Positions 1-64,000 of a DNA stretch of 64,000 nt are shown here, in pieces. The notes beneath the pieces were generated by a model. That model did not search any database, was not told where the DNA came from, and saw only the letters and a program-made list of their open reading frames with translations. The position numbers were made by a program, and so were the translations under genes. This DNA is from Chitinophagales bacterium (lineage in GTDB: Bacteria; Bacteroidota; Bacteroidia; Chitinophagales; CAIOSU01): NCBI GenBank assembly GCA_018401955.1, contig JAGYJT010000012.1, forward strand, positions 10,303 to 74,302. Reading direction: 5' to 3'. How positions within the stretch are numbered: position 1 is the first letter of the stretch; the number at the start of each line of letters is the position of its first letter.

Positions 1-3000
1 CAGCTTCATAAACCCAGGTATTGTAGTTTTAATACCATCCATACCCTTAACAATAATCTCGGCAGGAATGTCACCAAATACGGTGCCGTCAGTATCAATT
101 TCCCACGCTTCGTCTTTACCATCAATCTTGGCGCGAATAATATTAGTTCCTGCTTTACCCGAACCAACTCGCTTGGCTATATCAAGACCTTGAAGCACAA
201 ATCCGACGTTGCGTGTCGCTAGGTTACGCAAAGCAAGATCCATAACCATGTTCGTGTTTTGTAAAGAGTTTACAAAAATACTTCTTATTTTTTGGTCGGA
301 ACCTAAAAGTTCTTTGAGGTGCGGCTGCTCAGTAAGGTCTCCCATCTTTACTATTTTTTCATCACCGATAAAAAGATTAACTGTTCCAGAAGCATCTGCT
401 CGGTAGAATGGAATGTAGTCTTTTCGAGATTTTATTTCAGCAGCTTTAGCTTTGCTTAAGTAGCCCGATTGCTCCAATAACGTAATCAAATCGCTGTTGT
501 ACTCGTTGTAAAGCTTACGAGCTTCTTGGATAGCTGAGTCTTTTCTGCCAGCGTCAAGTAAAGCTTTAACGTCTGCTGGCGTAGTGTTTGCGCCTAGTTT
601 ACTAAGACCAACAGCTTTTGATTGAGCACGTTCAGCCGCCATATATGCGGTCATAAAGTTTTCGTTAGCTTGAACGTCTCCAAACTTAGCTTTGGAAAGT
701 GCGAGAGCGACCCCTTTCATTGACGCAGCGTCTTTTTGAAGGTCCCTAGAAAGCATAAACTCGCCGGTCTTGGGGTCCTTCATTAACTGCACAACGCCAC
801 TAGTCATTGCTTCTGAAACAAAACTTGTGCGTTGCCCATACTTACGCGCAAAATACAGAAGATCAGTTGCTTTCAGGCTATCGAGCATAGGCTTTCCAAC
901 TTTGTCTAGCGTAGCCTGCCCAATGCGTTTAATGCGCTCAAGGGAATCGAGACGATCAACAAACTGTGTTCTAAAATTTAAACCGCTAAGGTTGGCTTTT
1001 AATTTCTCATAGGCAGGTGTATCCGGAGCTACAATTTTATCTACCGCGTTGACTACATTTTGGTTTACCGTTGGGTTAAACCTGGGCTTGGCGCTTCGCA
1101 AGGATATGGTGCCGTCGGTATTACGGTAAGTCTTGGCTTTGCCAGCATCAAAAGTTTTGTAGGCGCTCTTAATCAGGGAGAAAAGCTCGGGCGTGGAGAC
1201 GTCTTTGAACTCCTTAAACCCACTGGATGTCAACCATCGGCGGATGGCAAACAGGATTTCTTTGAAGAACTTCTTAACCGCGCCTTCTTTAGAAGCAGGC
1301 GCCTTGTCCATATAATTTTCTGTAGTATAGGCAAGCACTTCACGAAGCGCCTTCATGCGAGCAAGCTCTACTTGCTGCGCCTTGGTCATTTTGCCCTCGG
1401 CTACAAGAGCTTTTGTAGACTCAACAGACTCAAGCCACGCATCGCCAGCCTCACGTAAAACGCCAAGCTCTTTTGCCAGAGCAAACACCCCGGTCTCACC
1501 AGTCTTAGCATCGCCAGGGAAAGAGGTTTCTACACGCTTTAGAAGTCGGCGTATACCATCCTTGCCAAGCAGCCCTTCAAGGGTATAGTGGCCCACCAGC
1601 TCGTGCGCTGCTGTCTGCTCAAGGTCTTTCAGGTTGGCGTGGTGGCTGACAATAACAAACACTTCGCCGTCAGGCGCTACACCGCCCTTAATTTTGTCGG
1701 CGTAAATGCTCATGCCTTGATTAGCAAGCGCCTTAAGAATCTTCATGGGAACTTCAGTGAAGTCTTTGTACACTTTGAACTTAATGTTCTGGCTCTTAGC
1801 TTTGGCTTCTAACTCTTTAATAAACGGAGCAGCTTCAGATGCATCAACAGCCGTTTCAAAGTCCGTATCGCCAACACGCCAGTCGTAGTTTGCGTCTTTA
1901 CGGTAGCCAGACAGTGCGTCTTTAAGTTCTTTGTCAGCTTCTTCCAGGCTTAAGAAAACATTGTCGTCTGGATTGGCATTTGTTTTGTCAGACGCCAGGT
2001 CTTCCAATTTTAGCTGAAGCTCGTACCTCGCTACGGTTGCACGAGTAAGTGCTGTCTGAGCCGACTTTAGTTTAGCCTTAGCCACCATCTGCTCACGCTT
2101 GTCTTTGGCAGCGTTAAGTTCAGCCTGGGCAACTTTCATCTGGTCACGAGCAATGCCTTCGGCTTCTGTCATGACCTCTAATTCTGTTTTCCTAGTGACC
2201 TGGTTCTTTACATCTTCAAGCAGAATACGGCGCTGCTTTTCAGCCATCTCGCTAAAGTCTTCTGCCGTGCCATAAATTGTTTCTTTTGTACGCACAGGCA
2301 GCGCAACAGTCTGCATGGCTTTGAGCCGGTTGGCATTTTTTGTATTAGCTGCGAGCTTGCCGCCAATCGACTGGCGCTCTTTTGGCGTAGCAGTTTCTTT
2401 TTGTTTCTCAAGCTCAGCACGTTGTTTAGCTAATATCTCAAGCTCATCGGCAATAGCTTCAGGCCGCTTTTCAAACGCAACATCCTCAAGCTCACGGCGA
2501 ACTTTCGTAACAGGAAGCTCTTTGCCTTCAGGCGTTTTCATGCGTCCGATCTGAAGCGCAGCAGTCAGGTCTTCTTCAACTTTCTCGGCTGCTTTAAGGC
2601 GGTTTTGGGTCGCTGTAATGCGTTTCTTAAGTGCTTCAACCGCGCTGCGTCGGTCGGCTACAGAGATTGCGCCTCGTGTGTCACGTTGCTGCTGTGCCCA
2701 GTCACCGTCTTCTTCAATCTGGCGAAGAACAAATTCACCGTCTCGGTTAATCGAAGTGTCAACGCCCTGCTTCTTAAGAAGCTCAACCGTTTTTTTGTTT
2801 TCATTCTTTAAAATACCGGCTTCTTTACGAGCCGCAACCATTTGCTTTTCAAGTTCTTTAATACGAGCACGTGCCTCTGGATCTTTTTTACCTGCTACCT
2901 GCTTGCGCAAACGCGCAAGTTCTGATCCAGCCTTTTGCAATTGGGTGGTAATGCGTGCAAGTTTCTTCTGGTTGTTTGAAACCTCAACCACATTGTCGTT

Positions 3001-5889: not shown

Positions 5890-5899
5890 ACCCTAGCCT

Positions 5900-10204: not shown

Positions 10205-10879
10205 TTAAGGAAGGGCCGACACCCAAACAATAGAGCCAATGACAGACGGTATGGCGGGTCTGGCAAAGGGAGATGCTTGGGCTGCATCGTGAAATAGCAA
10301 AATACCGTCGGCGGCAGGTGAAACGACATCTGCTTGGTCAGTTGCCCAGTAAAGCTCAACTTCATCACCGACATTCACACTAAAGGTTGCTTCAGAATAA
10401 GCACAAATAAACCCCGGTATGGAGGCGCTTTTTCTTGCCGGGACCGAAAAAGTAGTGGCTGAGTTGGCTACATCTGCCGAGTTTTTCTGAAGCCAAGCAG
10501 TCGCCGTATGCGCAGCGTTGTCAGTATTGGCAAACTGAATACTGTATCTGATCGTATACACCCCAGCAACAGCCGCTGTAGCAGACCCCGGTGAGTTAAG
10601 CGTCCAGCCAAACCCAGAGTCTAAAGTGTTGAAGTTAACTACCGTAGCAGTGTCGTCTGTGGTTCTTTGGTCGGTTGAGTCAGATGCCGCAATATGAGGA
10701 AGAGTTATGGTGTTCCCACCCAGGCCCCCGTTGAAAGCATCTAATACGGTATCTACAAGGAACCGATCCACCAAGTTAAAATATAAACGTAGGGCGTTAG
10801 AAAACTGATCTTGGTCCAGCCTGTTGTAATCATTCTTAAAAAGAGGCAGGTTGGGAGCAACGAATTTTTTACTAATCAT
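10205..10879 (-). CDS. Tail-associated protein with C1q/TNF-like jelly-roll C-terminus (224 aa)
   Basis: Intact ORF. The C-half (GVYTIRYSIQFANTD...WLQKNSADV...NVGDEVELYW) has the strand pattern typical of C1q-like receptor-binding heads. Overlaps the upstream gene by 4 nt. Confidence 0.4.
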   Translation of the reverse strand: MISKKFVAPNLPLFKNDYNRLDQDQFSNALRLYFNLVDRFLVDTVLDAFNGGLGGNTITLPHIAASDSTDQRTTDDTATVVNFNTLDSGFGWTLNSPGSATAAVAGVYTIRYSIQFANTDNAAHTATAWLQKNSADVANSATTFSVPARKSASIPGFICAYSEATFSVNVGDEVELYWATDQADVVSPAADGILLFHDAAQASPFARPAIPSVIGSIVWVSALP

Positions 10880-12836
10880 CGCTTACCATCCGGGCGTACA
10901 TCAAGCCTAGGCAAACCTAACTGCCACTGGACACCCAAATTCTCAGATTCAACCTTCAAAGCCATCTGCCTAGCTCTTGCACGAATATAAACTTGATTGG
11001 TGTACTGTCCTACCGACGTTTCAATTACCCGCTGGGTATCTGAAGGATCGCCTTGAAAGTTAGAGCCAGGCCAGTCTCGTGGGCGAATCGTGAGAGACAC
11101 TTCCGGATCGGTTGCTGTAGAGGTTGAGAAGTTGATGTCTGGGATCATTCTGCGGGTCAAAATAAACTGCTCACCATCACCAAGGTCAAAATCTGAGGAC
11201 TGGATAAAAGCCTCCATTCGGTAGTCCAGCGTCATCAATACCAGACTCATGCGTATACAAAATACCGGGGTCTTGATCCTCGTCGGTGTACATCGCTAAG
11301 GGTAATTGCCGTGATGCAACATCAAGCCATGCGGTTCGGCTCAGATTACCGTAGTACCAGACTTGATCTAAATGGTTATAAATGACGTAACGGTCTACCC
11401 AGTTTGAATTGCCGCTAGGGTAAAACCACCAGACTTCATTAAAGCCTTCGTTAGTGCCACTTATAACTTGATCTGCTTGAGAGTAGTTTAAATCTTTAAA
11501 CACATATTCACGCAACGAACAGGGTAGTGTTTGCACACGACCGTCGTACACATAGAACTTATCCAGCCCCATCCAGTAAGCAATGTTATTGGCTGTGATG
11601 ACCGCCCGTGGACTCATAATAGAAATATTGTCACCAGCCTTTGGAGGCCAAATACATCTGTCGTACCCAAAAACTGTAAGGAATACAGGGTCGTATCTGT
11701 AAAGGTCAAGATCTCTTGTCGTGTTGGTATGGCACGAATAATTCGTGAGCCACGAGAAACTCTTAAAAATCCAGCCGAGTTCGTAGTTGTGGGTTGCCAA
11801 ACATTAGGTTGATCTTGAGATGCCCAGCGAATTAACAGCGGGTCATAAGACGGCAATGGAGTTGGTGGGCTTGCAGGGTCGTAATAAGGTCTAGCCCCAA
11901 ACGCCAATAAATGTTTATCGTTTTGAGAAACAAGAATTTGACCAGCTTGATCTGGAACCGCTGATGCAGACACACCATTTAGGGTTAACCCAGATAACAA
12001 TACGGCATGAGTGTCGAGCGCTGTGGCAGGAGACACCGAAGTTCCACGCTCCCAATAGTAAATAGGACCACCAACAGCAACACCGCCCGCTTCGATATCT
12101 GCCCGAATATTCATTACCAAATCGTTGTCAAAATTGTCAAAAAACCAATCTCGTTGCGGCAAATAAACGGGCGTTGACGAAGATAAACCCCAGCCAAAAG
12201 AACCGCTCCAAGTACCAGTACCCCAGCCATAACCCTCAGTAACTAATGGAAAACCAGGGCTAATTTGGCACTCAATATCAATAGCCGTGCCTCCAGCACC
12301 GGGGGGAGTACTAACAGTTGAAGTAGCAGGGGTCGCAACTACAAACGTGAAAATATTAGCGTCTACTCTAGTAACAACATGTTCGGCATTGATCTCGGCA
12401 TCGGGTATACCACCGGGATCTCCAGAAACTCCAGAAATAGTTACATAGTCTCCGGTTGAACAACCATGCCCCGATATGTTTACAGAAACTGTGGTTGATC
12501 CATTTACTGTTGTTATACAGTCATCGGATGATGGGGTGGTAGAAGTAGTAAACGTTTCTCTAATTGGCGTAATGTCGTAAAAAATAGCTCCTACTTCAAT
12601 ATAGACTTTGACATTAGTGCCGACAGCCAGAAAATTATCTTGATACGACGTAATCCAATTCCACATCTGGCGGGATGTGCCGATAACCCGCTCAGACGTT
12701 GTTTCAACCCAACCACCAATTTTTTGTGGGTAGCCAGAAACCGAATTTTGTCGCACTCAAACCAACCACCCTCGTTAGCATAGTTAGTGGTATCTCGATT
12801 AATACCGGGGCGAAATTGAAGTTTGAGGAACGGCAT
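10876..12836 (-). pseudogene. Large tail/nozzle-like virion protein (~650 aa) split into four ORFs by at least 3 frameshifts
   Basis: ORFs 12591-12836, 11614-12756, 11186-11800 and 10876-11250 overlap in different frames and read through as one protein. Examples: ...GGWFECDKIRF|SGYPQKIGGWVETT at ~12,745 (one T missing from a T-run), ...TDVFGLQ|AGDNISIMSPRAV at ~11,640, and ...HESGIDD|LDYRMEAFIQ at ~11,230. Confidence 0.65.
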
Positions 12837-13232
12837 TTAGGCCACCAGTCCAGGGAGATAAACTGTTTTACCGTTTTGTTTCGTTGCGGTCAAGACCTGC
12901 TTTTTGTTGTCGGCAGGGTTGAAGCTCACGTGGACCCAGCCCGAGTCCGGGACACCTACTGTATAAAACTCTAGTATCAGTTGGCGGAACTCGCAGTTGT
13001 CTGCAATCCATTGGGCCAAGTCAGCATTAGCAATACCAGGAATCTCGATGTCGGCTGCAAACCCCTTGCAATGGTCCGATGTCGTACTGCCGCCCACCTT
13101 AGGAATTAACGAGGGGGTGCTCAGGCTATTGACCTTGACCCCCATGCCGTAATAGTCACGCACCTTTTGAAGCACGTTCTCGCACAGCAGGCGCATGTTC
13201 TCGATCTCGGTTTCGCTGGGGTCATTTGCCAT
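12837..13232 (-). CDS. Endolysin, peptidase M15 (zinc D-Ala-D-Ala carboxypeptidase-like) family
   Basis: GGSTTSDHCKGFAADIEIPG and GWVHVSF match the Sx-H-x-x-G-x-A-x-D ... H signature of Peptidase_M15_3-type phage lysins. 131 aa, adjacent to the holin. Confidence 0.75.
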   Translation of the reverse strand: MANDPSETEIENMRLLCENVLQKVRDYYGMGVKVNSLSTPSLIPKVGGSTTSDHCKGFAADIEIPGIANADLAQWIADNCEFRQLILEFYTVGVPDSGWVHVSFNPADNKKQVLTATKQNGKTVYLPGLVA

Positions 13233-13295
13233 GCCAAAGCGCAGGGCCGTCTCGCTCTTTGGTCATTTCAGACAAGGTGAAGTTCTGGGTCAGGT

Positions 13296-13734
13296 TCATT
13301 TCTTCTTTTCCATGATGTCATCAAGCTGGGCGCTCTTTTCTTTGCTGCCAGCCGAGGATCCAAAATAGTAGCCCAACACCATCGTAACCGCAGAGGTCAG
13401 CGCACCCAGTACATAGATGAGAATGTCCTTGGAATCGGCATCCACATCAACAAAGATAATCACGCCAAACAAGATAAAGGTTAACCCTACCGTGCCAAGC
13501 GCAAGCAAGGGGGTGACAATCTTGCTCAACATTGGAGCAAACTCGCTGGTAGCAATCTGCACTTTCGATCACGGGCAGACTGCATCTCTTTAACCTGGGC
13601 CTCTAGTTGAGCCAGTTCACCCCGCTGCGCCATCTCCATAAGACTAACCTGTGCTTTGGCTTTGGCCTCTGGGTCTGGCAGAACCTTATCCAGCACTTTT
13701 CACCAATGGATAGAATTGCGGCTAAGGGAATCAT
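13296..13734 (-). pseudogene. Holin, GTA-type 3-TM family, interrupted by 2 frameshifts
   Basis: ATG at 13734. Reads MIPLAAILSIGEK|VLDKVLPDPEAKAKAQVSLMEMAQRGELAQLEAQVKEMQSARDR|VQIATSEF...TM segments. The PDPEAKAK...coiled segment followed by TMs resembles PF11351-type holins. Frame changes at ~13,695 and ~13,565. Confidence 0.5.
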
Positions 13735-14138
13735 CTTGCAGTCTCCATTGTGTTGTCGCCCTTCTTAACTGTCACCTTGTCGCCGTCAACAGTTACAGAC
13801 ATGGGGTCACGGTCAGCCATCCGGTCAAGGCGGTCAATAAGCTGCTTCATCACCTCAAACTCTGGCTTTTCTTGCTTTGGTGTAGCCCCGGCGATGTTGT
13901 TGAGCATGGAGATCAGGCCGTGAGAGACGCACCAAGCAGCCCCATCACCGCAGCCATCTTGCCTTCTGCCAACTCAAGACTGGCAAGCACACCGATCACC
14001 AATAAGCGTAATGTAGAACAGGCCGTACCGACCAATGGATTTGCCTGCCACCTCTTTGGCGTTTTGCTGGGCATCCAACCGATTAAGTTCAGCCCGTATG
14101 TCAATCTTGGCCCGTTTAAGTTCTTTGTCATCAAACAT
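13731..14138 (-). pseudogene. Membrane protein of the lysis cassette (hypothetical), interrupted by 2 frameshifts
   Basis: ATG at 14138 after GGGGAAAG. Reads MFDDKELKRAKIDIRAELNRLDAQQNAKEV...GLFYITL|LVIGVLASLELAEGKMAAVMGLLGAS|SHGLISMLNN...KVTVKKGDNTMETAR only if the frame is changed at ~14,005 and ~13,925. Confidence 0.4.
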
Positions 14139-14150
14139 GACTTTCCCCTT

Positions 14151-14624
14151 TTACTTTGCGTACCTAAAAATAAAGTCTACTGCCATGTACAGTAACAAGC
14201 ACCCAACCACGACTACGGCTGAGACACCACCATAAAGAAACATGTCGTCCCAGAACTTCTTTTGCATCATCTCCTGCTCTTGCTTCATGCGGATACGGTC
14301 TGCCCTGATCTTACGACGCATCTCTAAAAACTTGCGGTACCCGTCCAGGCTCCCGTAGCCACCTTCAAGGTTACAAAATGCCCCATATAAAAATTCAAAC
14401 CGTATTTCCTTCTCTATAGACATTAACTTATGCTCGGCCTCGTTGAAGGCTTCCTGCGTGTCGTTACCAAAATCTAAATTACCAAACAGCTTGGGTTTCT
14501 GAGGCTTGTTCTTCGCATCGGTGATGTGCTGCTCAAGCTGGTCTGCATAACCGACGTATTTACTTAACTGTGACCAAACACCTTCAGCCTCCTGAGCAAA
14601 CTCGGAGGCTTTCTTTGATGCCAT
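14151..14624 (-). CDS. C-terminally membrane-anchored coiled-coil protein (lysis accessory/spanin-like?), 157 aa
   Basis: Intact ORF with a single C-terminal TM (GGVSAVVVVGCLLLYMAVDFIF). Lies immediately upstream of the holin/endolysin genes. Confidence 0.35.
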   Translation of the reverse strand: MASKKASEFAQEAEGVWSQLSKYVGYADQLEQHITDAKNKPQKPKLFGNLDFGNDTQEAFNEAEHKLMSIEKEIRFEFLYGAFCNLEGGYGSLDGYRKFLEMRRKIRADRIRMKQEQEMMQKKFWDDMFLYGGVSAVVVVGCLLLYMAVDFIFRYAK

Positions 14625-14678
14625 TCCATACCGCCGAGGCCGCTGCTAGAAGAGTGATTGGGTCCATTATTCATTTCA

Positions 14679-25882: not shown

Positions 25883-25977
25883 GGCGTTCTATCCTTCTAA
25901 GCTCTCTTAGCGTTTGCGTGGAGTACAAGACCCATTCAAATACGTTACCGTCTGTCTTCGGCTCGTACGTCGGCATC

Positions 25978-32789: not shown

Positions 32790-32976
32790 CTATTTCCTCA
32801 GCTTTCTGTGCAAGGTCAAGTAAGTAAGCCTCTGCCATTGCCAGACCTTGAATGACACCGCAGAGTTTTTGATACTGCTCAAAATTTTGACAAGCGCCGC
32901 CTGCAATATCGTCGGCGTAGTTATTCAAATCTTCTCGTATTTTTTTGCGTAGAACCTCTACGAAGTTTTCAATCAC
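32782..32976 (-). CDS. Small hypothetical protein (64 aa)
   Basis: Intact ORF overlapping both neighbours by a few nt; helical, acidic C-terminus. Confidence 0.35.
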   Translation of the reverse strand: MIENFVEVLRKKIREDLNNYADDIAGGACQNFEQYQKLCGVIQGLAMAEAYLLDLAQKAEEIDD

Positions 32977-35441
32977 CGGGTTTTACCTCCTCGTTGTCTG
33001 GATTCCCCAACAGATATGCCGAGTTTCATTCCCTCAAGCTGCTGCTTAATCTTCAGTTCGTCGGCGTCTTTTGCTGCTTTTACTAACAATTCTTGCTCTC
33101 GTAACTTCAATTCGTCAGCTTTTGCTGCCGCATCCACCGCCAGTTCCTTCTCTTTTATAGCGAGTTCAGCCTGTTTAATCTGAATGTCGAGTTGGTCTTT
33201 CTGCGTTTTGCGCTGCTGCTCGGCCTGCTTGAGCATGAGTTCTTGCTGCTGCATCTGTACGATGGGGTCTTGCGCTTGTTGCTGCGCCTGCTTCTGGGCA
33301 ACTTCGGATTGGCTATTTGCCAATACCCGCTTACTTGCTTCTGCTGCCAGACGCGAAACCTGAATTTCAAGCTCCTCGGGCATCTCTGTATCGGGTGCAG
33401 GTAACGGCATCCCAAGCTGCTCTTCAAGCCTACGGCGGTAGGCAAACCCAACGTGCTCAGCGATATGCGCCTGCATCGCCGCCACAAGCTGGTTGGCTCT
33501 TGGATTTTGCCCAATAAGCTGCGTAACAAGTGGATCCTGCATTGCGTTCATGTGTACCTGAATATGTGCCTCATGGTCTTGATAAATAAAGGCTTTTACG
33601 GGCTTGCCCTTGAGCACATCCATGTTCTCAGACACGGGGTCCACCGGCTTCTCATCATCCTCTGTAGGTATAAGCTTGGCGGCGTTCTTAATGCCAAGGG
33701 TTTCAAGCATTTGCCTGTGAAGCTGTGGGAGGTTGTAAATCTGAGGCGCCGTCTGGGAAAGCTGGATAACTGCCTGATACTGCACAATCCTCTGAGACAT
33801 CGTTGCCGCATTGGGGTCCGAGACAGGAATAACCTCCACCATGTCGTAGTCGGCCTGTTTGGCCCGCCTTGACCCCTCAATCGGATCGTAGTCGTAATCA
33901 TCGTCGGTGTAATCCCTAATGATTGCAGACAAAAGCTTTAACTCATGTTTAAAGGCGTAGTGCACCCGAGCTTGAACCGCAGACATCACCTTGAGCATGC
34001 GCTCCAACAACGCCAGCGTTGTACCCACAGGGGCCTGTGCCGACATGTCCGAAATCTTCATGTCTGATGTTGCGGCAAAACGACGCCCTTCTTCAACAAT
34101 CGTCCCTAACAACTGGTACAGCGTCGCACTGGGTTCTTTATAGGGTAGTGGCAGAATGTTATCCCGCAGAGCGCCAGAGCCAATGTCCACATCTCTAAAC
34201 TCCCCCGGTGCAATCGGTGTGTCGTCCCCCTTGATGCGTAGTCCTCTGGATTTCAGTCCCCCCGGCAGGTTGGATAACGTACCGGCATCCACAAGCTGCC
34301 TCATGATCGACGTTGCCGACTTGGCAAACCCACCAATTAGGTGAAACAGCCCGAAGCCGTAGAACCCAAAGCCAGGGATGTAAACGTAGTGCACGAAATG
34401 GTCGCGTCTTTTTTGCGTTACATCGTCTTCGTAATAGTTACGCCTAACTGCCAGTACTTCACCTGTGCCCTCTACCACTGTGACCACGTATGGTATGGCA
34501 ATGCCTGTAGGCTCCCCGTCTTCTAGGTCTTCATAGCCCGGTAGGTCAAGGTTGACGTGTACTTCATACAACACATAGCGGTCGTCATTAATTGACGACA
34601 TTCCGCTTTCTTTGTCCTTTTTCTCCTGCAACTCATTTTTTAGCCTGGAGGGCTCACCCAGTTCAATATCACGGTAAAAGCCTGCTACCTGAAGCTTGCG
34701 TATCTCATTGCTGGTTTTGTACATACGATGTGTTACACGCTCAGCACTCTCCAACCCCACCGCGCCGTAGGACACGATAATGTCTTCTGCTGGAACGAAA
34801 ACCGATGTCTGGCGCTGGAGGTTGGGGTCGAAGTAGACTTTCTTAAATGCGGAACCAGTGGCTGGCAAGTTCCACAACATCCTTTCGTGCTCCATGCGGA
34901 ACTCAGGCATGCGCTCGGTCAACTCGTAGTTCATGTCCTCCTTGACTCGGGCTGCAGCGTCTTCTTTCTCGCGTGTGTCTTTACCAATAATTTTTGTACG
35001 TACAGGCCCTTGAGCAGGAAATGTCTCCATGATTGTTTCGGACTGAAAACGAACGACCGCTTCTGTAATCATGGGGTGGAACACACCACAGGCGCCGTCC
35101 CACGGCTCAGTACGCTCTTCGTATTTCAAGCCAAGCAGCACAAGCCCTTCTTTATACGATTTCTCCCAGTCTTTTCGGGAATCAAGGTCGTCTTTAATAT
35201 TTTGTAAAAGCTCGTTACCAAGGCTCTGCAGTTCAGCTTCGTCTATTTCTTCTGCAAGGTTGGCATAAAAATCAGGCCCGCCTTCGCCTTCGGTAATTTC
35301 AAGAATTTCTTCCCCACCCACGCTAACGCGTACAGCTTCTGGGTCCTCAATCTCAATTTCAAGATCCGGTTCACCCATCAGCGCTTGAGCGTCTTCCTCA
35401 ATGCCTTGGGGTGCTTGGTACAGTGCTTTATCAATAGCCAT
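32973..35441 (-). CDS. Portal protein (822 aa) with long Q/K/E coiled-coil C-terminal extension
   Basis: Largest head-module ORF, one gene downstream of the terminase, with AAGAGG box. C-terminal ~150 aa are Q/E/K-rich (QKQAQQQAQDPIVQMQQQELMLKQAEQQRK...). Confidence 0.7.
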   Translation of the reverse strand: MAIDKALYQAPQGIEEDAQALMGEPDLEIEIEDPEAVRVSVGGEEILEITEGEGGPDFYANLAEEIDEAELQSLGNELLQNIKDDLDSRKDWEKSYKEGLVLLGLKYEERTEPWDGACGVFHPMITEAVVRFQSETIMETFPAQGPVRTKIIGKDTREKEDAAARVKEDMNYELTERMPEFRMEHERMLWNLPATGSAFKKVYFDPNLQRQTSVFVPAEDIIVSYGAVGLESAERVTHRMYKTSNEIRKLQVAGFYRDIELGEPSRLKNELQEKKDKESGMSSINDDRYVLYEVHVNLDLPGYEDLEDGEPTGIAIPYVVTVVEGTGEVLAVRRNYYEDDVTQKRRDHFVHYVYIPGFGFYGFGLFHLIGGFAKSATSIMRQLVDAGTLSNLPGGLKSRGLRIKGDDTPIAPGEFRDVDIGSGALRDNILPLPYKEPSATLYQLLGTIVEEGRRFAATSDMKISDMSAQAPVGTTLALLERMLKVMSAVQARVHYAFKHELKLLSAIIRDYTDDDYDYDPIEGSRRAKQADYDMVEVIPVSDPNAATMSQRIVQYQAVIQLSQTAPQIYNLPQLHRQMLETLGIKNAAKLIPTEDDEKPVDPVSENMDVLKGKPVKAFIYQDHEAHIQVHMNAMQDPLVTQLIGQNPRANQLVAAMQAHIAEHVGFAYRRRLEEQLGMPLPAPDTEMPEELEIQVSRLAAEASKRVLANSQSEVAQKQAQQQAQDPIVQMQQQELMLKQAEQQRKTQKDQLDIQIKQAELAIKEKELAVDAAAKADELKLREQELLVKAAKDADELKIKQQLEGMKLGISVGESRQRGGKTR

Positions 35442-35450: not shown

Positions 35451-36308
35451 TTAAATTAATTTCTTGTTGCCCGCGTTTTCAACGTAGCCGCCCTCAGCAA
35501 ACCCAATCATTCGTTTAAATTTGTCAATGGTGCCTGTGGTTGGCTCTTCAACCCGAGTCATAGGTTCTATATCATGCCTGTCTAACCGGGTCATGCGAAG
35601 TCCTGTTAGGGCGTTATAAGTTTCCCGCACATCTCGATCTTTAAACAGCGTTTTACGAAGCACTGGATCCTTAGTTAAATCCACGCCTTGTGTATCTTCA
35701 ATGGATGCAAGGGTGGCAAGCTGTTCATATAAAAGGTTCGGAAGTTTTCCAGCCTTTGCTTGAAATTCAAGCATCTTTGGGTCCAAGTATGCCGACTCAA
35801 TACCGTACTTTTCTTTGAGGTATGGATACGCTTCAGAGGCGGCTCTTACAAAATCAGTCCTCTTTCTCCCTAAATACTTCTTTTCTTCTTCTCCGGCTTT
35901 GTTTTTTCTAGTTGTAAAATCACCAAGTAACTCATCAAACTTTTGGTTAATGTTTGCAGCAGCCCCCAATTGTTTCCTAGCCAGTATGTGGTTGGCTTCA
36001 TGCGAAGCTGTTTGTGCAGGATTTTTGTTCTCTGGGTTCATCCACATTTCATCAGGAATACCCATATTTGCATAGTTATCCCTCAAGTACGGGCTTTCCA
36101 TTACATACCCGCCAGTGCTTGATCCTTCAAGCGCATAATCTCTACGCACCTGTGGATTTACCAAGCCCTGATAGGTAGAAGAACTTCCTTCTGTACCCTT
36201 TAAAAGCGCGGGTAGCCCACCGGGCACTGCTTCTGTAAAGCGTCGTTGACGATTTACCCTTTGTTGCACTTCTGGGTGCAGCTCTTCGTAGGATCGGTCT
36301 TTAGCCAT
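35451..36308 (-). CDS. HExxH-motif protein (putative zinc metallopeptidase), 285 aa
   Basis: TASHEANHILARKQLG contains HEANH. C-terminus IGFAEGGYVENAGNKKLI. Lies between the terminase and the portal. Confidence 0.4.
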   Translation of the reverse strand: MAKDRSYEELHPEVQQRVNRQRRFTEAVPGGLPALLKGTEGSSSTYQGLVNPQVRRDYALEGSSTGGYVMESPYLRDNYANMGIPDEMWMNPENKNPAQTASHEANHILARKQLGAAANINQKFDELLGDFTTRKNKAGEEEKKYLGRKRTDFVRAASEAYPYLKEKYGIESAYLDPKMLEFQAKAGKLPNLLYEQLATLASIEDTQGVDLTKDPVLRKTLFKDRDVRETYNALTGLRMTRLDRHDIEPMTRVEEPTTGTIDKFKRMIGFAEGGYVENAGNKKLI

Positions 36309-36316: not shown

Positions 36317-37831
36317 CTAGTAATATGCCGCCTTGCGGCTACGGAAGTACATTGGTTCATCGGCTTCATCGCTTGGTAGCGTAATAAACCCCCCATTTCT
36401 AAAGCGTAACAGCGCCTGGGTCATAGTGTCCACGTAGTCGTCATGCTCTCCAACTGGAAACGCCACAATCTCTTCAATCACATCCCGCGCCCATCGTGTA
36501 TCGGGCGCCCAAACGCACCCACTGGCAAATAAATCTGAAACAGCATTGACACGGGTAATCTTATCGTTGCCTCGACTGGGGGTAAATTCGTCAACAGGTA
36601 TACCCATGCGGCGTAATTCTTGAATTAGCGGGGCGCCAGCAGCTTTTTTTTCTACTAAAAACGCATCAGGCTCCCACTCTTTCCATTGCTTGTAAGCAAC
36701 CTCTTTAAGTTCGGGAAATTCCATTCTATCTTTAAATGCGTCCAAAAGTATAATACTGGGTCGGCTGCCCTCTTCTTCGTTATACCAAATACCCCAGGTT
36801 GTGCACGCCGTGTAGTCGGCTGTGGTCTTGGCTTCGTGCGCCGTGTCCCAAGACTGATAATAAATTCGCACTGCGGCGGGTCTTCTGGCTCCCAAATACG
36901 CCAGTGACTTCTCTTAATAAACGCTGCAGAATCAAGTGTTGGCTGCTGCATGTACTGGGCGTTCCAATACCGGGGGTCCATCGCCATTTTCTTTTGCTGT
37001 AGCTGCTCCAGGGGCCACTGCTCAGGCCAAAGGCTCTTTTCTTTCTCAGTATCCTCAAAAAGGATAGCCGGAAGTTCCACAATTTCCCAAGGATCTGCGT
37101 CTGGATTACGCGCTTGAAAGCTAAGAAGCCGCCCTGTTAAGTCCACCAGGCTCCATCGTGTCATTACCACGATAATTCGGCCCCCTGGCATCAACCGCTG
37201 TAGCGGTCCGGTCTGAAACCACGACCAGGCATTGTCAAATGTGGCTCTGCTATTGGCTTTTATATCCTGTTCGGAATGTGGGTCATCAATAACAAACAAA
37301 TCGGCACCGCGTCCTGCAAGTGCACCACCCACACCCACCGCGTAATATTGACCGCCCTCGTTTGTTGACCATTTACCGGCAGCTTTTTGGTCGTCTGCGA
37401 CTTTCGTTCCTGGAAAAACTTGAGCATAGTCCTCTCCTTCAATGAGGTTACGCACTCTTCGGCCAAAATCTTCCGACAATCCGGCGGTGTGGGTCGCCAT
37501 AATGATCTTTGTCTCGGGGTACTGCCCTAAAAACCACGCTGGAAACAAGTAAGAGGCAAACTCTGACTTACCCATACGGGGGGCGATGTTAATAATCACC
37601 CTCTTTTTCTTACCAGAAGCCACGTCCGCAAAAATCTTCGCCAGTTTCCTGTGGTGCGCACCCTCTTTAAACCCAGGATACACCTCCTTTGCAAAGGAAA
37701 TCATGTCCCCTGGCATTACGCAGCCGTAGGCGGCGCTCTTGTTCGTCCAGTTCTTCAAGAAATTCAAGCTTTTGCTGCGGTGACATGCTTTTAAGCAGCA
37801 CCTGCAGCTCTGGGTCAGTCATTCTCTTCAT
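36317..37831 (-). pseudogene. Terminase large subunit, interrupted by 2 frameshifts
   Basis: Walker A-like IAPRMGKSE and Walker B DLFVIDDPHSEQD. Nuclease half YYQSWDTAHEAKTTADYTACTTWGIW...GEHDDYVDTMTQAL. ORFs 37667-37969, 36655-37767 and 36317-36895 overlap in different frames (shifts ~37,700-37,770 and ~36,860-36,890). Confidence 0.85.
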
Positions 37832-38400
37832 CTTCGACGGTCTCAACCTCTTGGGCTTCAACTTCAATCGTTTTGTGCAAGGCATCAAGCTTTTGTTTAA
37901 TGCGCTCGTCCAGCTCCACATCGCTAAGATCGGATTTCTTAATCTCAATGCGCTCAGTAAACAGCCCAACCTCGGTAACTTTACCCAGCATCTCCAAAGC
38001 CTTTAAGCGTATTCGGGCATCAGGGTGCTCGGTCTCTTCCAATATCTTTGCCACCGCCATTCCACGTATATGCTGCGCCTGCTCCACAAACTGCCAGTCG
38101 TATGCCGTTAACATCCCCACCAAGCGCTGCACTGCAACAGGCGTCTTGATCTGAGTCAGGCTGGTTTTTGCCTTCTCGTGATCCACTAATGAATCTTTAA
38201 ACGCCTCCGTGACCTGCTTATGCTCCATTTCCGTCAGAATCTCGTCCTCGGTTTTGGCGCCCAGCTCCGTTAACCAGTCGCTGGTGTTGATCTGCGCTTC
38301 AAGGATTTGTTCGCGTTTGCTTTTTTCATAGGCAAAAAGGTTTCCAGGGGTACGCTAAGTACCTCCGGTGGGGGCGCGGATTCTTGTAGGTGTTCGAGCA
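37815..38400 (-). pseudogene. Terminase small-subunit candidate, interrupted by 1 frameshift
   Basis: ATG 38400 follows AGAGGAATTACAAT. That frame stops after 37 codons, while the adjacent frame is open from ~38,355 and runs into MEHKQVTEAF...(ORF 37815-38228). The shift lies in the T5/A6 runs at ~38,320-38,345. Position is immediately upstream of TerL. Confidence 0.45.
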
Positions 38401-38487
38401 TATTGTAATTCCTCTAATTTAGTTTATACTTATCATGCGCTTGTGTGCAACACAAGCGTTTCTCCTTTCTGTATTCTCCTCCTTATG

Positions 38488-38520
38488 CCCCCGTTCACAG
38501 GCGGGGGCTTTTTGTTTTGC
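38488..38520 (+). terminator. Plus-strand intrinsic-terminator-like hairpin in the phage terminal region
   Basis: GCCCCCG-ttcacagg-CGGGGGC followed by TTTTTGTTTTG. A second 9-bp perfect hairpin (CGCTTGTGT-gca-ACACAAGCG) lies at 38438-38458. Confidence 0.5.
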
Positions 38521-38582
38521 CGTTGTCTATTTTTTGACAATGGTTATGCGGATTTTTGTAGAAAATTTAAGCAGGTGTGAAA

Positions 38583-38645
38583 GGGGGTAAGCACAAATCT
38601 ATGCGCGTTAAAGTGGGGGATAAGCACAAATCTATGCGCATTAAA
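38583..38645. repeat. Two tandem ~31-bp direct repeats
   Basis: GGGGGTAAGCACAAATCTATGCGCGTTAAA (38583-38612) and GGGGGATAAGCACAAATCTATGCGCATTAAA (38615-38645), followed by a third GGGGGG start. Confidence 0.85.
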
Positions 38646-38831
38646 ATGTAGGGGGGTCCGATACCAGTCCCTTTCCCTTGGCTCGGCGTTCCTTTGGCTG
38701 CATAAGGAGGTGTCATAACCAAAATCTACGAGCTATTTTAGGTCGCTGCGTAGCTGACCCGGCCTCCCCAGCAAATATACAAAAGTTGGGCGAGTTTATG
38801 CTGACGGCGTAACTTCTTGAAGATGGGGCGT

Positions 38832-41021
38832 TTAATCTTTTATAGAAAATTTTGACAGTTGCGGCCGTGCAGCTGCGAAACACTGCTCCTTGTGCGGTCT
38901 GCCAAGGCCTAGTAGCATTGGGGGATGTAAAGCTCTCTTGTGGGGTCTGATATTCCAAAAAAGGCCAGTCAAACCAGCCAGACCTAAATACCTAATAAGT
39001 GTTATAATGTAAGTAAGCCAATTGGGTAGGCCATTTGACGGCAAGCCGAACGCCCGATGTTTCCAGAATATTGTGGGTACTTCAGTGCAAAGTAGCACAC
39101 AGAGGGTGCCTGTAAACAAAAAGCTCTTGCCATCCAGTTTGTTGTTGGCTGGGGTAACTTCCTCGTGCTGTGTTTCGATGTTTACACCCAGTTCTTGTAG
39201 TTTTTTTAGTAGCTGAATATTGGCTTCGGTATGGAAGAACTCATACACGCTTTCGGCTACTTTGGGGCCAACGTCTTCTAGTTGGGTCAGTTTTTCTTGG
39301 TCCCAGTCAATATAGTCAAGTGCTGATTTTACCTGTTTGGCCAATACTTTGGCAGTAGTATTGCCAATATGCCTTATGCCCAAGGCGGTAATCAATCGCC
39401 AAAGTGGTTGGGTCTTGCTGTTTTCAATGCCGGTTTTTAGGTTGGCCACACTCTTTTCTTTCCAGCCTTCCAAAGCCAAAATGCGGGCATAATCCAATTG
39501 GTAAACATCTTCTAGCTGATTGATGATGCCTTCAGCCATAAAACGCTTTACTATATCTTTACCCAAGCCATCAATATCCATAGCACCTTTGCTCACAAAA
39601 TGAATGATGCGTTCTTCTTGCTGCACCGGGCATTCAATATTTACGCAGCGCCAAATAGCCTCCCCCTCGGGCTTTACCAAGGTAGAGCTACACGATGGGC
39701 ATTCGCGCGGGAAATCGATAGCAGTTTCGTTGCCGGTGCGCAAAGTAGTTACCACTCCCGCAATGTATGGTATTACTTCCCCAGCACGCTCCACTACCAC
39801 GGTATCGCCAATCTTAATATCTTTTTCCAGTATAAAATCCTCGTTGTGCAACGATATGGAGCTGATAGTAACACCAGCCAACGGCACTGGCGTTATTTTA
39901 GCAACTGGCGTTATCGCTCCCGTGCGGCCTACCTGAAACTCCACCCGCTCCAAGGTGCTTTGCGCTTGGCGGGCTTTAAATTTGAAAGCTATGGCCCAGC
40001 GCGGGTGGTGAGAGGTGCTACCGGTTTCTTGTTGTTTTTGGTAGTCGTTCAGTTTTATCACCATCCCATCAATCTCGATAGGGAACACGTTGCGTTTTTC
40101 TTCCCACTCGCCTACATGGGCTACTACTTGTGGTATAGTAGGGTATAGGCCAATCTCTTTTACCGGGGCATTAAAACCTAGTTTGTACAAGGTTTCAATA
40201 CTCTCATAGTGGGTTTTAATACCCATGCCCAATACATTGTTGCCATCCTTATCAATGGCATATCCTATTTGGTATATTACCGCCTCCAAGCCACGGCGGG
40301 CCACTTCGGCGCTATCCTTTAATCGCAACGCACCTGATGCCGTGTTGCGGGAGTTTTGAAACGTTTTTAGCCCCTGTTCGCGACGCTTTTCGTTCATTGC
40401 CTCAAACACATCATTGCGAATAACCACTTCGCCACGCACTTCAGCCTTCACTATGCCGTATTTGCTAAACTCGGCCCTAAGGGGTATTGATTTTATTACC
40501 TTGGCATTGTTGGTAATATCTTCGCCCATTACACCATCGCCACGGGTGGCGGCGCGCACCATAATATCGTTTTCATAAAGAATGGCAATGCTAGAGCCAT
40601 CAAATTTGGGCTCCACACAGTATTCAATACCTTCGTTGCCCACTATTTTGCGCAAGCGGTTGTCAAACTCCGTAAGGTCTTCTTCGTTATAACTATTGTC
40701 CAACGATAGCATGGGCAAGTTATGCTCAACCGGCACAAACGCCTCGGTTAGCCCCATGGCCACCCTTTGGGTTGGCGACTCGGGTGATTGTAGCGAAGGG
40801 TAATTTGCCTCAATATCTTTAAGGCGCTTGAAAAGCTGGTCGTAGTCAAAATCAGTAATTACCGCTTCAGAGCGCACATAATATCTCCAGTCGTGGTACT
40901 TAATGGTATCCCTTAAATCTTTTACTTCTTTATCAGCAGCCTCTAGGCTTTGCGGTGCAGGGTTTGCCAGTATTTGTTGGCTTAGTTCCAGGTATTCACG
41001 TTCTTGCGCTGCGGTGTACAT
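38832..41021 (-). pseudogene. ligA: NAD+-dependent DNA ligase LigA, truncated in the BRCT domain at ~39,100 and fused to ~89 unrelated codons
   Basis: Adenylation motif CVEPKFDGSS, Zn finger CPSCSSTLVKPEGEAIWRCVNIECP, HhH region, and BRCT start DGKSFLFTGTL. After GTL (nt ~39,102) the text becomes CVLLCTEVPTIFWKHRAFG..., with no BRCT similarity. Confidence 0.85.
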
Positions 41022-41133: not shown

Positions 41134-41943
41134 CTATTTTCTACATACTATTATGGGTTCTCTGGGGTCAACGGCATATTTGGTATAATCTTGGTTTGGG
41201 CTGAGTTTGTTCAGCCTTAAGAGTTTTACATCGAAACCCACATAAGCAAGTCGCTCTAAATAATCGGTTCCGTACTGCCTTACATGGTCTTTTTGCCCAA
41301 AATACTTTTCGCGTAATTCATCACTTTCCAAAAAAGCGTCTTCTTGGGTATGTTTTAGTTTTTCATCCAAAGGCACTTGAAATATGCCCCACCCGCCTAT
41401 TTTCATTACTCTAAAAAACTCACTCATTACCCGTAAATCATCTTGTACGTGTTCTAGTAAGTGGTTGGCAATCACCACATCAAAAGTCTCATCTTTAAAA
41501 GGTATGGCATGAGCATCAAAATGATATTGTGCCCACGGGCTACACAGGTCGGCGGTGATGTAATCTAAATTATTTTGCTTTTGCAGCGCCCTTCTTAGGC
41601 ACACCTCTGGCGCTATGTGCAAAACCTTTAACGGCTCACGAAGCAGGTTGGTGTGCTCTTTGAGGTATAGAAACAAAAGACGATGCCGCTCTAGCGATAA
41701 AGAACCGGGCGCCAGTGCATTGGGGCGTGGGTTTACATACCCGTAGGGTAACAAGCTACGGTAGCCTCTGTTGTCAATGGGGTCAATGTAATTTTTTCCC
41801 CTCAGGTAAAGGGCTATCAATGGTGAGGCGAGTTCTGCAAAGCGTTGCAGCTGGTTTCGCCCAAACCCATTAAGTGCCCATTTTATCATCATTGGTAAAA
41901 ACATAGCAAATGGCGTTGATTGATACGAAAGTACTGGCATCAT
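41134..41943 (-). CDS. Class I SAM-dependent methyltransferase
   Basis: FDVVIANHLLEHVQDDLRVMSEFFRVMKIGGWGIFQVP is a typical Methyltransf_11 post-I/II region. The start codon is uncertain. Confidence 0.65.
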   Translation of the reverse strand: MMPVLSYQSTPFAMFLPMMIKWALNGFGRNQLQRFAELASPLIALYLRGKNYIDPIDNRGYRSLLPYGYVNPRPNALAPGSLSLERHRLLFLYLKEHTNLLREPLKVLHIAPEVCLRRALQKQNNLDYITADLCSPWAQYHFDAHAIPFKDETFDVVIANHLLEHVQDDLRVMSEFFRVMKIGGWGIFQVPLDEKLKHTQEDAFLESDELREKYFGQKDHVRQYGTDYLERLAYVGFDVKLLRLNKLSPNQDYTKYAVDPREPIIVCRK

Positions 41944-42121
41944 TTGCTTTGGACAATTACAAAATTTCGCTGTTATCGGGCAGTTGCATCACTGTAATTG
42001 GTTTGGTTGTATTTTTATTACCATAAATTGAGGATGCTAAAACCGCTGAATATTAGGATGATAACAGCACTATTGGAGCTGAACAGAATTGAAGCCTTAT
42101 CAACGAGAAGATTATTTATAC

Positions 42122-43138
42122 CTACGTGGCTTTTTCTTTTCCTCCCCAAGCTTTTCGAAAAATGTTCCAATAACTGGTTTCTACACAAGCATTATCAAGC
42201 AAGCCACGTTTTTTGAGCATTTGGTGCATAGTTCTCAGGTTATACGGTGCTACAGCGGGCATAAGGTGGTGCTCAAGGTGATAGTTTACATGGTGTGGTG
42301 CAAACAGCAAGCGTTCGTACCACCTGGCATAGGTAGTACGGGTATTATTCAATGGGTCGGTGGTATCTGGTGTAATGGCGTGCTCGGCTATGGAGCGTAC
42401 CCTGGCAAACAGCATGGCAGTGGTGAGCATACTGCCTATCCAAATAAGGTATAGCCATGGTTGGCCAAAAGCTAGCATTGTAATAAAAATGATAGTGTTG
42501 ATGATAATGGGGCCCGCTAAATTACCAGCACCGTATCGTAATCGTTCATAGTATTTTTTGCCGGTATTATCTATGCGCTCTACTAAGCCGCCCAATTGGT
42601 ATTTGAAGTTTCCAAGGTGCATCATTACAATCCCAAAGTGGGCCTTAATGCCACTAACACCGCTTATATCTCTACCTATTTTTCGGGCAAAGCTTTTTGG
42701 GGAGGTTGGATAGCCCGCCTTAAGGTGCAAATCGGGGTCGTTAACTGTACCGGTGTGTTGGTGATGGCTTAGGTGATAGGTTCGGTATGCTTCCATATCG
42801 TGCCAAATTGGCGCACCGCATAGCCATTTACCTACCAATTGGTTTTGCTTTTTTGTTTTGAAAAGGGCATTGTGAGAAGTATCGTGCATTAATATAGCTA
42901 GTGCAAGTTGCCTACCACCTATAATTACAAATGCAGCAGCAACGGTAAATGCATTGGGCCATAAACCTACCAATACAAACGTGGCAATAATAAGGCCCCA
43001 CGTGAACATAACTTCCCAAGCTGCTTTCCAGTTGTTGCGTTGCATTAGTTGGCGCACTTCGTCTTTTGAGAAGATTTTTAAAACGTTCATTATCCTAAAG
43101 TTATCATTTAAAGATATGGCAACCCAGTATGTTGACAT
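42122..43138 (-). CDS. Membrane fatty-acid desaturase
   Basis: Three His boxes (HDTSHN, HLSHHQH, HHVNYHLEHH) plus TM segments. The start may be the internal MNVLKIF (43090). Confidence 0.85.
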   Translation of the reverse strand: MSTYWVAISLNDNFRIMNVLKIFSKDEVRQLMQRNNWKAAWEVMFTWGLIIATFVLVGLWPNAFTVAAAFVIIGGRQLALAILMHDTSHNALFKTKKQNQLVGKWLCGAPIWHDMEAYRTYHLSHHQHTGTVNDPDLHLKAGYPTSPKSFARKIGRDISGVSGIKAHFGIVMMHLGNFKYQLGGLVERIDNTGKKYYERLRYGAGNLAGPIIINTIIFITMLAFGQPWLYLIWIGSMLTTAMLFARVRSIAEHAITPDTTDPLNNTRTTYARWYERLLFAPHHVNYHLEHHLMPAVAPYNLRTMHQMLKKRGLLDNACVETSYWNIFRKAWGGKEKAT

Positions 43139-63206: not shown

Positions 63207-63217
63207 AATTTTCCCCG

Positions 63218-64000
63218 ATGGCCGCCGACAATGAACGCACCATATTGCACATGGACCTAGACAGTTTCTTTGTCTCGGTAGAGCGCCTCAAAAACCCTGA
63301 GCTGGTTGGCAAGCCTGTAATAGTAGGTGGCAGCAGTAAGCGTGGGGTAGTGGCGGCGTGTAGCTACGAAACCCGGAAGTTTGGTGTGCACAGCGCCATG
63401 CCCATGATGCAGGCGCTGAAGCTATGCCCCAATGCCATAGTAATTAGCGGCAGCCATGGTGAGTATAGTCTATACAGCAGGCAAGTAACCAATATTATAA
63501 GGGAAGAGGCGCCGCTGTTTGAGAAATCGAGCATTGATGAGTTTTATATTGACCTCACGGGCATGGAGAAGTACTTTGGTTGCTACCAGTGGGCTACCAA
63601 GCTGCGCCAGCGCATAATGACCGAGACCAACCTGCCCATTTCCTTTGGCCTATCTATAAATAAGATGATGGCCAAGATTGCCACAGGCGAGGCCAAGCCC
63701 AACGGGCAACTTATGATACCCCGCGGAACCGAGGCGGAGTTTTTAGCCCCCATGAAAGTGGGCAAAATCCCTTTTATTGGCGAAAAGACCGAAGAAACGC
63801 TGAATAAACTAGGTATACGTACCGTTGGGCAGCTGGCCAACTACAACCTAGGGCACTTGGAGCAGTTTATCGGCAGCCATGCCAGCACGTTGCAACTGCG
63901 GGCTCGTGGCATCGACCATAGCCCTGTTACACCATTCCACGAAGCGAAATCGGTAAGCACGGAGCGTACCTTTTATGAAGATACTATGGATGTAAACTAC
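63218..64000 (+). CDS. dinB: DNA polymerase IV (Y-family), N-terminal part; continues past window end
   Basis: Hand translation from ATG 63218: MAADNERTILHMDLDSFFVSVERLKNPELVGKPVIVGG...SIDEFYIDLTG...SFGLSINKMMAKIATGEAKPNG. These are canonical DinB motifs. No stop occurs before the window end, which is why it is absent from the ORF track. Confidence 0.9.
   Translation, partial: MAADNERTILHMDLDSFFVSVERLKNPELVGKPVIVGGSSKRGVVAACSYETRKFGVHSAMPMMQALKLCPNAIVISGSHGEYSLYSRQVTNIIREEAPLFEKSSIDEFYIDLTGMEKYFGCYQWATKLRQRIMTETNLPISFGLSINKMMAKIATGEAKPNGQLMIPRGTEAEFLAPMKVGKIPFIGEKTEETLNKLGIRTVGQLANYNLGHLEQFIGSHASTLQLRARGIDHSPVTPFHEAKSVSTERTFYEDTMDVNY

Follow-up and report, generated by a model that had tools for sequence, protein, structure and literature searches.

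Shine–Dalgarno usage sets apart an HTVC023P-type podovirus segment and the Bacteroidota chromosome to which it is joined in a Chitinophagales assembly

Introduction

HTVC023P-type podoviruses (PMC9599517, PMC10149686) share a gene order of terminase, portal, a gene in the GroES position, capsid, tail genes and giant terminal protein. Their genes are led by Shine–Dalgarno (SD) sites (by the scoring used here, 40% of annotated starts in HTVC023P and 58% of starts in CRP-901), no integrase is seen in them, and cultured relatives infect Pelagibacter, Roseobacter and Caulobacter. A second described system is the SD-independent initiation of Flavobacterium johnsoniae (PMC6847099, PMC7797042, PMC9976891), and A-rich leaders at starts are a known pattern of the Bacteroidota (PMC6847099). 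We report here on a 64,000-nucleotide (nt) stretch of DNA, hereafter the window, that comprises bases 10,303–74,302 of contig JAGYJT010000012.1 (C24) in an assembly of a Chitinophagales bacterium (GCA_018401955.1; 153 contigs, 3.49 Mb, 79% complete). Its left part is HTVC023P-type phage DNA, its right part is Bacteroidota chromosome, and the two differ sharply in SD usage at gene starts. In window coordinates, used throughout, the parts are as follows.

Left of the window, to the contig start at −10246, plus strand: convergent replication module of the phage, SD-led
1–39100, minus strand: HTVC023P-type podovirus segment, the late/structural operon (PHROGs and Pfam matches, tblastn, synteny with phage Pag-Yong1, SD statistics)
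39103–64000, no strand: Bacteroidota chromosome segment (Pfam matches, synteny, SD statistics, typical tetranucleotide usage)

Shine–Dalgarno usage on the two sides

Genes were called throughout the assembly with a codon log-likelihood model that takes the first ATG as the start, so that the choice of start is blind to SD sites. We scored a start as SD-led when a core of at least 4 nt stood at a spacer of 3–12 nt, with a stricter variant demanding a core of at least 5 nt. Taking the best SD over every candidate start of a gene inflates the result through multiple testing (a 4-nt core then turns up in 33% of host genes), and this measure served as a secondary figure only. Within the window, a core of at least 4 nt precedes 20/46 genes on the left as compared to 1/21 on the right (Fisher P = 0.0014), the stricter core gives 12/46 and 0/21 (P = 0.013), and the mean anti-SD duplex energy is −5.0 kcal/mol on the left versus −0.65 kcal/mol on the right (Mann–Whitney P = 1.3e-7). 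Across the whole assembly, the 4-nt core is found at 23 of the 55 phage genes (42%), as against 124 of 2776 genes elsewhere (4.5%; Fisher P ∼3e-16) and 9% of the 32 host genes of contig C24. Cores of at least 5 nt lead 25% of phage genes, 0% of the C24 host genes and 1.3% of genes elsewhere (Fisher P ∼7e-14), and duplex energies differ at Mann–Whitney P values from 1e-8 to 1e-19. A genome-wide search saw no other SD-rich gene cluster.

Internal in-frame ATGs have an SD core at 6–7% in both halves alike, so base composition is not the cause of the contrast. By position, SD 4-mers begin at −11/−10 in 22–24% of phage genes, while the host profile is flat at ∼0.5% and host leaders are A-rich (0.41–0.49) at −14 to −10. 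Beyond the left edge of the window, SD-led phage genes extend for a further 10.2 kb, as far as the end of the contig. The phage genes carry canonical SD sites, with a purine-rich core that is complementary to CCUCC and enriched over background, and the contrast with the neighboring genes is an inherited mark of the origin of each DNA, not a regulatory device.

An earlier note on this DNA, made from its letters alone, had described the contrast from selected starts and proposed scoring all predicted starts on both sides, which yields the highly significant differences above. The five SD-led starts that it quoted, at 30348, 30980, 20067, 20608 and 36308, are exact. It went too far in giving nearly every left-hand start a strong SD site: the enrichment is real, with a figure of 40–60% depending on threshold, and it falls short of "nearly every" partly because many phage open reading frames (ORFs) are frameshift fragments with false starts. 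One of its two exceptions on the right, the sigma-factor gene at 51413 (GAGGA/AAGGA), does have an SD site; the other, the desaturase gene, has its start called at 43138 with none. The boundary between the two sides lies at ∼39,100, not in mid-window.

The phage and its relatives

The left 49.4 kb of contig C24, that is, the window up to ∼39,100 and all that precedes it, is most of a lytic-type HTVC023P-group podovirus genome. By tblastx it is colinear with Planktothrix phage Pag-Yong1 from terminase to giant terminal protein, and its late operon meets a convergent early/replication module that encodes a family A DNA polymerase (its gene truncated where the contig ends), a PD-(D/E)XK exonuclease, an SNF2 helicase and a DUF927 primase. 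Its landmarks in the window are:

29437–30348, minus strand: major capsid protein gene, SD-led (AAGGAGcagataaATG); phrog_371, 74% identity to the Pag-Yong1 capsid
32973–35441, minus strand: portal gene, 822 amino acids (aa), intact, with AGAGG 6 nt before the ATG; phrog_1216
36317–37767, minus strand: large terminase gene, frame broken; Pfam Terminase_6N
37815–38403, minus strand: gene in the small-terminase position, frame broken, true start near 38403 (AGAGGAAttacaatATG); aligned to relatives L062 (94%) and L070 (90%)
38975–39033, plus strand: putative early-promoter element with the extended −10 TGtTATAAT at 39000–39008; shared with IMG/VR loci L060, L073, L076, L079, L085 and L086

The capsid protein is 74% identical to those of Pag-Yong1 and Synechococcus phage MinM2, 65% to those of Pelagibacter phages HTVC023P/027P and 59–60% to those of Roseobacter phages CRP-901/902, and the portal is 35–46% identical to those of HTVC023P-type and Caulobacter phages, with 38–46% for those of the HTVC023P type. 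Capsid and portal matches to cultured members span 75–100% of their length; Caulobacter and Alcaligenes phages are more distant relatives. The nearest relatives are uncultured environmental contigs (capsid 80–91%, portal up to 85%), with >300 IMG/VR contigs holding portal relatives. Caution is due on the cyanobacterial host assignments. Three records assigned to Planktothrix, Synechococcus and Planktothricoides (OL906435.1, OQ594354.1 and PP438419.1) are each 65,014 bp long with equal query scores, so they are apparently one genome, and a GC content of 0.68, as they have, is high for a cyanophage.

The C24 phage resembles the described HTVC023P-type phages in gene order, in its SD-led genes and in having no integrase in sight. 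Unlike them, it is joined to a Bacteroidota chromosome, is incomplete (∼49 kb of an expected 52–65 kb) and carries at least 13 frameshifts, which affect both terminase genes. It is a new, damaged and otherwise typical member of the group.

Several smaller features of this region may be mentioned. An SD-led gene of 285 aa with no Pfam match lies between the portal and large terminase genes (35451–36308); variant contig C17 and loci L062 and L070 lack it, joining 35445 directly to 36302, and it looks like a strain-specific cargo gene. Two short non-coding elements, at 38975–39033 (the early-promoter element) and 38838–38892, are kept in distant IMG/VR relatives, reading CTAAATACCTAnTA..TGTTATAATGTAAGT and TTTGACAGTTGC...GCTGCGAAACACTG; they probably serve the phage group as early promoters or regulatory sites. 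A tandem pair of ∼32-nt direct repeats (…TAAGCACAAATCTATGCGCrTTAAArTG…) is found at 38590–38650, upstream of the late operon, and a strong hairpin followed by a T-run at 38488–38520.

Evolutionary home of the phage

SD use was found in 30/30 relatives scored (27 loci from species-representative genomes plus Pag-Yong1, HTVC023P and CRP-901), at 25–88% of starts and across GC contents of 0.35–0.68; it is a trait of the whole phage lineage. Four Bacteroidota phages put through the same scoring (Flavobacterium 11b, Cellulophaga phi38:1, Bacteroides B40-8 and Croceibacter P2559S) have SD sites at 0–7% of starts, which agrees with the published statement that Cellulophaga phages do not show the strong-SD feature (Hockenberry et al., bioRxiv 10.1101/2021.04.21.440840). 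AGGAG-type SD sites standing 5–9 nt before starts throughout the lineage suggest that the phage would be tuned to hosts whose ribosomes use SD/anti-SD pairing; the hosts of cultured members belong to the Alphaproteobacteria.

The capsid gene was found in 0/700 other Bacteroidota genomes searched, namely 0/400 sampled from across the phylum and 0/300 sampled from the same order (5 from the host's genus and 17 from its family among them). In tetranucleotide distance, 10-kb windows of the phage fall at the 97th–99th percentile of host windows and the host half of C24 shows typical values; codon choice differs strongly between the phage and host halves (Thr ACC 0.25 versus 0.46, Val GTC 0.15 versus 0.02, Ile ATA 0.16 versus 0.34). 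The earlier note had suggested codon and tetranucleotide comparison together with a nearest-phage search on terminase, portal and capsid; the former sets the halves apart on both measures, and the closest phages from the latter are not Bacteroidota phages. Its central proposal, that the phage evolved elsewhere than in the organism contributing the right half, thus draws support from the SD contrast, the nearest phages, the lack of the capsid in 700 genomes, and composition. The evidence supports different evolutionary homes for the phage and the right-hand chromosome.

Among 185,579 species-representative genomes, 27 records hold capsid relatives, with labels from about ten phyla, and nearly all are metagenome bins or single-cell assemblies. 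The labels include Microbacteriaceae, Nanopelagicales, Methylopumilus, Burkholderiales, Chloroflexota, Dehalococcoidia, Saccharimonadales, Cyanobium, Maricaulis and Rhodobacteraceae, as well as Roseivirgaceae and Ignavibacteria. These capsids are 66–91% identical to that of C24, and several lie on phage-only contigs of 55–62 kb, approximately the size of a whole phage genome. Such a spread of labels is the signature of an abundant free phage that is binned arbitrarily. One of these loci (L023; CP070693.1, 1,081,055–1,101,963), with a capsid relative at 87% identity, lies near the end of a 1,121,939-bp "Dehalococcoidia chromosome", a metagenome-derived record labelled closed; here, too, DNA of this phage type may have been appended to bacterial sequence.

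The Bacteroidota chromosome

The right segment encodes type IX secretion system (T9SS) cargo proteins and sorting domains, PorP/SprF, psd, sigma factors, NlpC/P60 and a parC-like gene; Pfam bears out the labels parC, psd, NlpC/P60, PorP/SprF and sigma that the earlier note had given from translations. The segment is syntenic gene for gene, in single frames, with two same-genus genomes (protein identity 72–95%). Between ligA and a T9SS/Omp28 gene, at 41134–43138, are methyltransferase and fatty-acid desaturase genes; ligA directly adjoins the T9SS gene in the two same-genus genomes, which makes this a 2-kb, two-gene insertion specific to the C24 genome.

The host genes fit SD-independent initiation of the Bacteroidota type, with no SD usage genome-wide and A-rich, unstructured leaders; in this type of initiation, an anti-SD still present in 16S rRNA is sequestered by bS21/bS18/bS6. 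As in F. johnsoniae, SD cores at starts (4.5%) are under the internal-ATG background, leaders are A-rich at −14 to −10, and the anti-SD is kept in the 16S ribosomal RNA (rRNA) of the family: a 16S gene was not found across the 153 contigs, and that of a same-family genome has the canonical anti-SD ACCUCCUUU (reading ...GGAATACCTCCTTT). On this same-family sequence, the host lineage appears as a typical member of the Bacteroidota in which the anti-SD is present but unused (PMC7797042). Many Flavobacteriales have an extended autoregulatory SD at rpsU; the host rpsU (L129, on contig C86) does not (…aaaacaagagttgaatATG). There is nothing unusual on the host side, which is textbook Bacteroidota.

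The junction

The two sides meet inside the gene for NAD-dependent DNA ligase:

39098–39104, no strand: phage/host breakpoint, ...GCACACAGAG / GGTGCCTGTAAA... (alignments to relatives)
39100–41021, minus strand: ligA, truncated (Pfam; 88–90% protein identity to same-genus relatives)

The ligA product matches its relatives up to ...DGKSFLFTGTL, and DNA homology stops at 39,103. In place of the BRCT domain (the last ∼63 aa; the intact end is ...FTGTLTKFTRDEA...), ∼90 codons of unrelated sequence are read through as far as 38832. In five same-genus genomes, the best ligA matches are without the phage junction, and 4/4 full-length ones end in an intact BRCT domain. From the phage side, relatives L062 and L070 align through the gene in the small-terminase position, and alignment with relatives resumes at the early promoter. 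The phage leader then runs to ...GCACACAGAG, after which antisense ligA begins from GGTGCC...; the best-matching relative reads ...GCACACAGAGAGGAAACTGCTATG at this point, which puts the breakpoint at the SD site of the first early gene. In relatives, this SD-led gene stands ∼90–110 nt downstream of the early promoter, where C24 has host DNA instead. The sequence common to both sides is at most ∼4–6 nt (GAGG-like). Since the other end of the phage is the contig end, which cuts the DNA polymerase gene, only one junction is present.

We looked for the missing pieces. The BRCT end of ligA and its downstream neighbor were not found in the bin, which holds only distant paralogues of the neighbor; a second phage/host junction was not found in the assembly, nor was the rest of the phage early region when the bin was searched with the early regions of ten relatives. 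A short-word BLAST search with the junction region as query, run against the ends of all contigs, yielded no more than chance 16–20-mers. Exact-pattern scans, of metagenome and viral contigs for the phage side and of metagenome contigs for the host side, returned no match, and no identical protein is on record for the fused LigA, the protein in the small-terminase position or the capsid. We also considered a phage-borne ligase as the cause of a chimera inside ligA, and rejected it: no frame of 38229–39110 resembles a ligase or BRCT domain.

The evidence does not support a prophage integration at the join. The earlier note implicitly treated the phage as a prophage resident in this host; the locus lends this no support, with no integrase, no attachment (att) site and no repaired target gene, and the join may be an assembly artefact. 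No tRNA occurs in the window, and the junction shows no repeat, att core or repaired target. Integrase, repressor and excisionase have no match in the 49 kb present, with an estimated 3–15 kb of the genome lying beyond the contig end and the junction. Integrase and transposase are likewise absent from the annotated features of relatives (all 102 of Pag-Yong1, the first 72 of 86 of HTVC023P and the first 75 of 77 of CRP-901), and the word "integrase" does not occur in the main genomic paper on the HTVC023P-type group (PMC9599517). Related hosts show neither the same element nor an occupied site: ligA is intact in same-genus genomes and the capsid is absent from all 700 genomes searched. Mu-like transposition can be set aside, as there is no transposase and the replication module is built on a family A DNA polymerase and a primase. 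The C24 phage does share with cryptic or defective prophages decaying by frameshifts the several small inactivating deletions in essential phage genes beside intact host genes. Unlike them, it is of a phage type in which no lysogeny module was seen, it interrupts an essential host gene with no site-specific signature, and it has no large deletions, with 20 kb wholly intact.

Frameshifts and variant contigs

The phage half carries at least 13 small frameshifts, mostly deletions of 1–2 nt, while 12 host genes of the same contig have none. The main cluster is:

10879–14650, minus strand: densest cluster of frame disruptions, in structural genes (comparison with the intact variant contig C20)

Here a needle-protein homologue is split near 11225, 11629 and 12738, and 1–2-nt indels relative to the intact C20 occur at 13254, 13562, 13696, 13916, 14002 and 14614 (counted as five or six). 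There is a frameshift near 23600 relative to the intact variant contig C41, and another near 25900. The large terminase has lost 1 nt at 36857 and 2 nt at 37712 as compared to two IMG/VR relatives with an intact 523-aa frame, and the gene in the small-terminase position has lost 1 nt at 38313 as compared to two IMG/VR relatives in which it is intact. A common form of loss in C24 reduces a doublet to a single base (CC to C, GG to G, AA to A), which fits either deletion-biased decay or a consensus-error mode of assembly. Counts of in-frame stops inside tblastn alignments were dropped as a measure, because spurious antisense ORFs of relatives gave false stops in demonstrably open genes.

Six variant contigs of 1.1–1.8 kb in the same bin are 73–99% identical to parts of the C24 phage. 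They match at:

−922 to 209: C49
13159–14669: C20
17825–18970: C34
23022–24170: C41
28582–29757: C48
34129–36823: C17

C34 matches at 99.4% identity for 1,146 bp, beyond which it diverges. The variants show that the sample holds a diverse population of the C24 phage type and that the bin contains redundant phage DNA. The frameshifts are clustered between 10.8 and 38.4 kb, with ∼20 kb free of any (−10,246 to 10,800, including a 7.4-kb ORF); frameshift zones coincide with the regions that have variant fragments in the bin (C17, C20, C34, C41 and C48), and C49 overlaps the frameshift-free part.

Explanations of the join

Phage and Bacteroidota DNA on one contig is unusual, yet is most economically explained without new biology. 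We lean, with limited confidence, towards a misassembly or library chimera, in a bin that also gathered other fragments of the same phage population. The prior probability that a whole lytic phage genome is captured in a non-host is very low, and misassembly is favored over real insertion for that reason. Several features favor an artefact: the phage type is lytic and habitually mis-binned, there is a single junction, an essential gene is cut and left unrepaired, a diverse phage population was co-assembled, and the frameshifts concentrate where the assembly graph must have been tangled. As in chimeric or mis-binned contigs of metagenome-assembled genomes, there is one junction with no att site and a cut essential gene, tetranucleotide, codon and SD usage shift abruptly at one point, and the phage turns up in bins of about ten phyla. 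Unlike such contigs, C24 has no long shared sequence at its junction, and its frameshifts are confined to one side. These two differences weigh against an artefact. Chimeras made in a de Bruijn graph normally require that the two sides share a k-mer of at least 20 nt, and the junction overlap is only ∼4–6 nt. The frameshifts, at least 13 in the phage half, are missing from C20, C41, the IMG/VR relatives and the 12 host genes, and such one-sidedness is better explained by dead inserted DNA in decay than by a simple chimera.

The join may instead be real, which we hold possible though doubtful: a non-temperate foreign phage genome would have been captured inside ligA by illegitimate recombination at microhomology, and would now be dead and decaying. 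It would have entered by mis-adsorption and injection or by uptake of free DNA, and its SD sites would be unused relics. The junction has microhomology only, as such an event would leave, and the frameshifts are confined to the phage, both terminases included, where variants and relatives are intact and the 12 host genes clean. They are mostly 1–2-nt deletions, as deletion-biased decay predicts, and the intact, phage-free ligA of same-genus relatives would fit an event that is recent and confined to this lineage. A priori, however, it is very rare for a lytic phage genome of ∼50 kb to be captured whole in a non-host, and here the capture would cost the BRCT domain of the only ligA found. The clustering of frameshifts in regions with variant contigs is more like an assembly-quality effect, the 99.4%-identical C34 points to a live, diversifying phage population in the sample, and the other junction and the 3′ end of ligA are absent from the bin.

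It is very unlikely that the phage truly infects or persists in this Bacteroidota host, its SD-led genes kept on purpose and read, for example, by ribosomes free of bS21. Physical linkage on one contig and the co-binning of variants would suit such an infection, as would the canonical anti-SD ACCUCCUUU of the host family (from same-family 16S rRNA) and the finding that bS21-free ribosomes of the Bacteroidia, in F. johnsoniae, gain SD recognition (PMC9976891). Against it stand the four real Bacteroidota phages without SD usage, the capsid found in 0/700 Bacteroidota genomes, the breakage of both terminase genes, and a composition and codon usage unlike the host. The phage encodes no bS21, the sole match in the assembly being the host gene on C86, and a naive scan of the bin for clustered regularly interspaced short palindromic repeats (CRISPR) gave no array or spacer. 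If anything a shade less probable is the specific form in which an SD-led phage of alphaproteobacterial or cyanobacterial type replicates or persists in a Bacteroidota cell by way of a special ribosome pool (e.g. bS21-free 30S subunits); if true, that pool would be a private initiation channel for phage messages in a host that otherwise ignores SD sites.

Least probable of all is that the contrast reflects merely the generally stronger SD sites of phage (especially virulent phage) mRNAs and says nothing on origin: strong SD sites are in general more frequent in phage genes than in host genes (bioRxiv 10.1101/2021.04.21.440840), but the same preprint excepts Cellulophaga phages, the four Bacteroidota-phage controls at 0–7% already contradict the idea, and the host rate of 4.5%, at or under the 6–7% background, leaves no host SD usage for a phage to amplify. 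Under misassembly, dead insertion and true infection alike, the SD contrast has the same cause, a phage lineage built for SD-reading ribosomes beside a chromosome that is not.

Implications

This case shows that foreign or mis-joined DNA in assemblies of Bacteroidota can be spotted sharply and cheaply by SD usage at starts, which changes no more than a few hundred bases from the true breakpoint. It also marks a species-representative genome as probably contaminated with phage DNA or chimeric. That an abundant phage type is spread over bins of about ten phyla matters for inferring phage hosts from bin membership. If the join is real, C24 would document something rarely seen, the capture of an entire non-temperate phage genome in the chromosome of a non-host. 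For the phages themselves, the ecologically important HTVC023P-type group gains a well-resolved member and a conserved element that is probably an early promoter.

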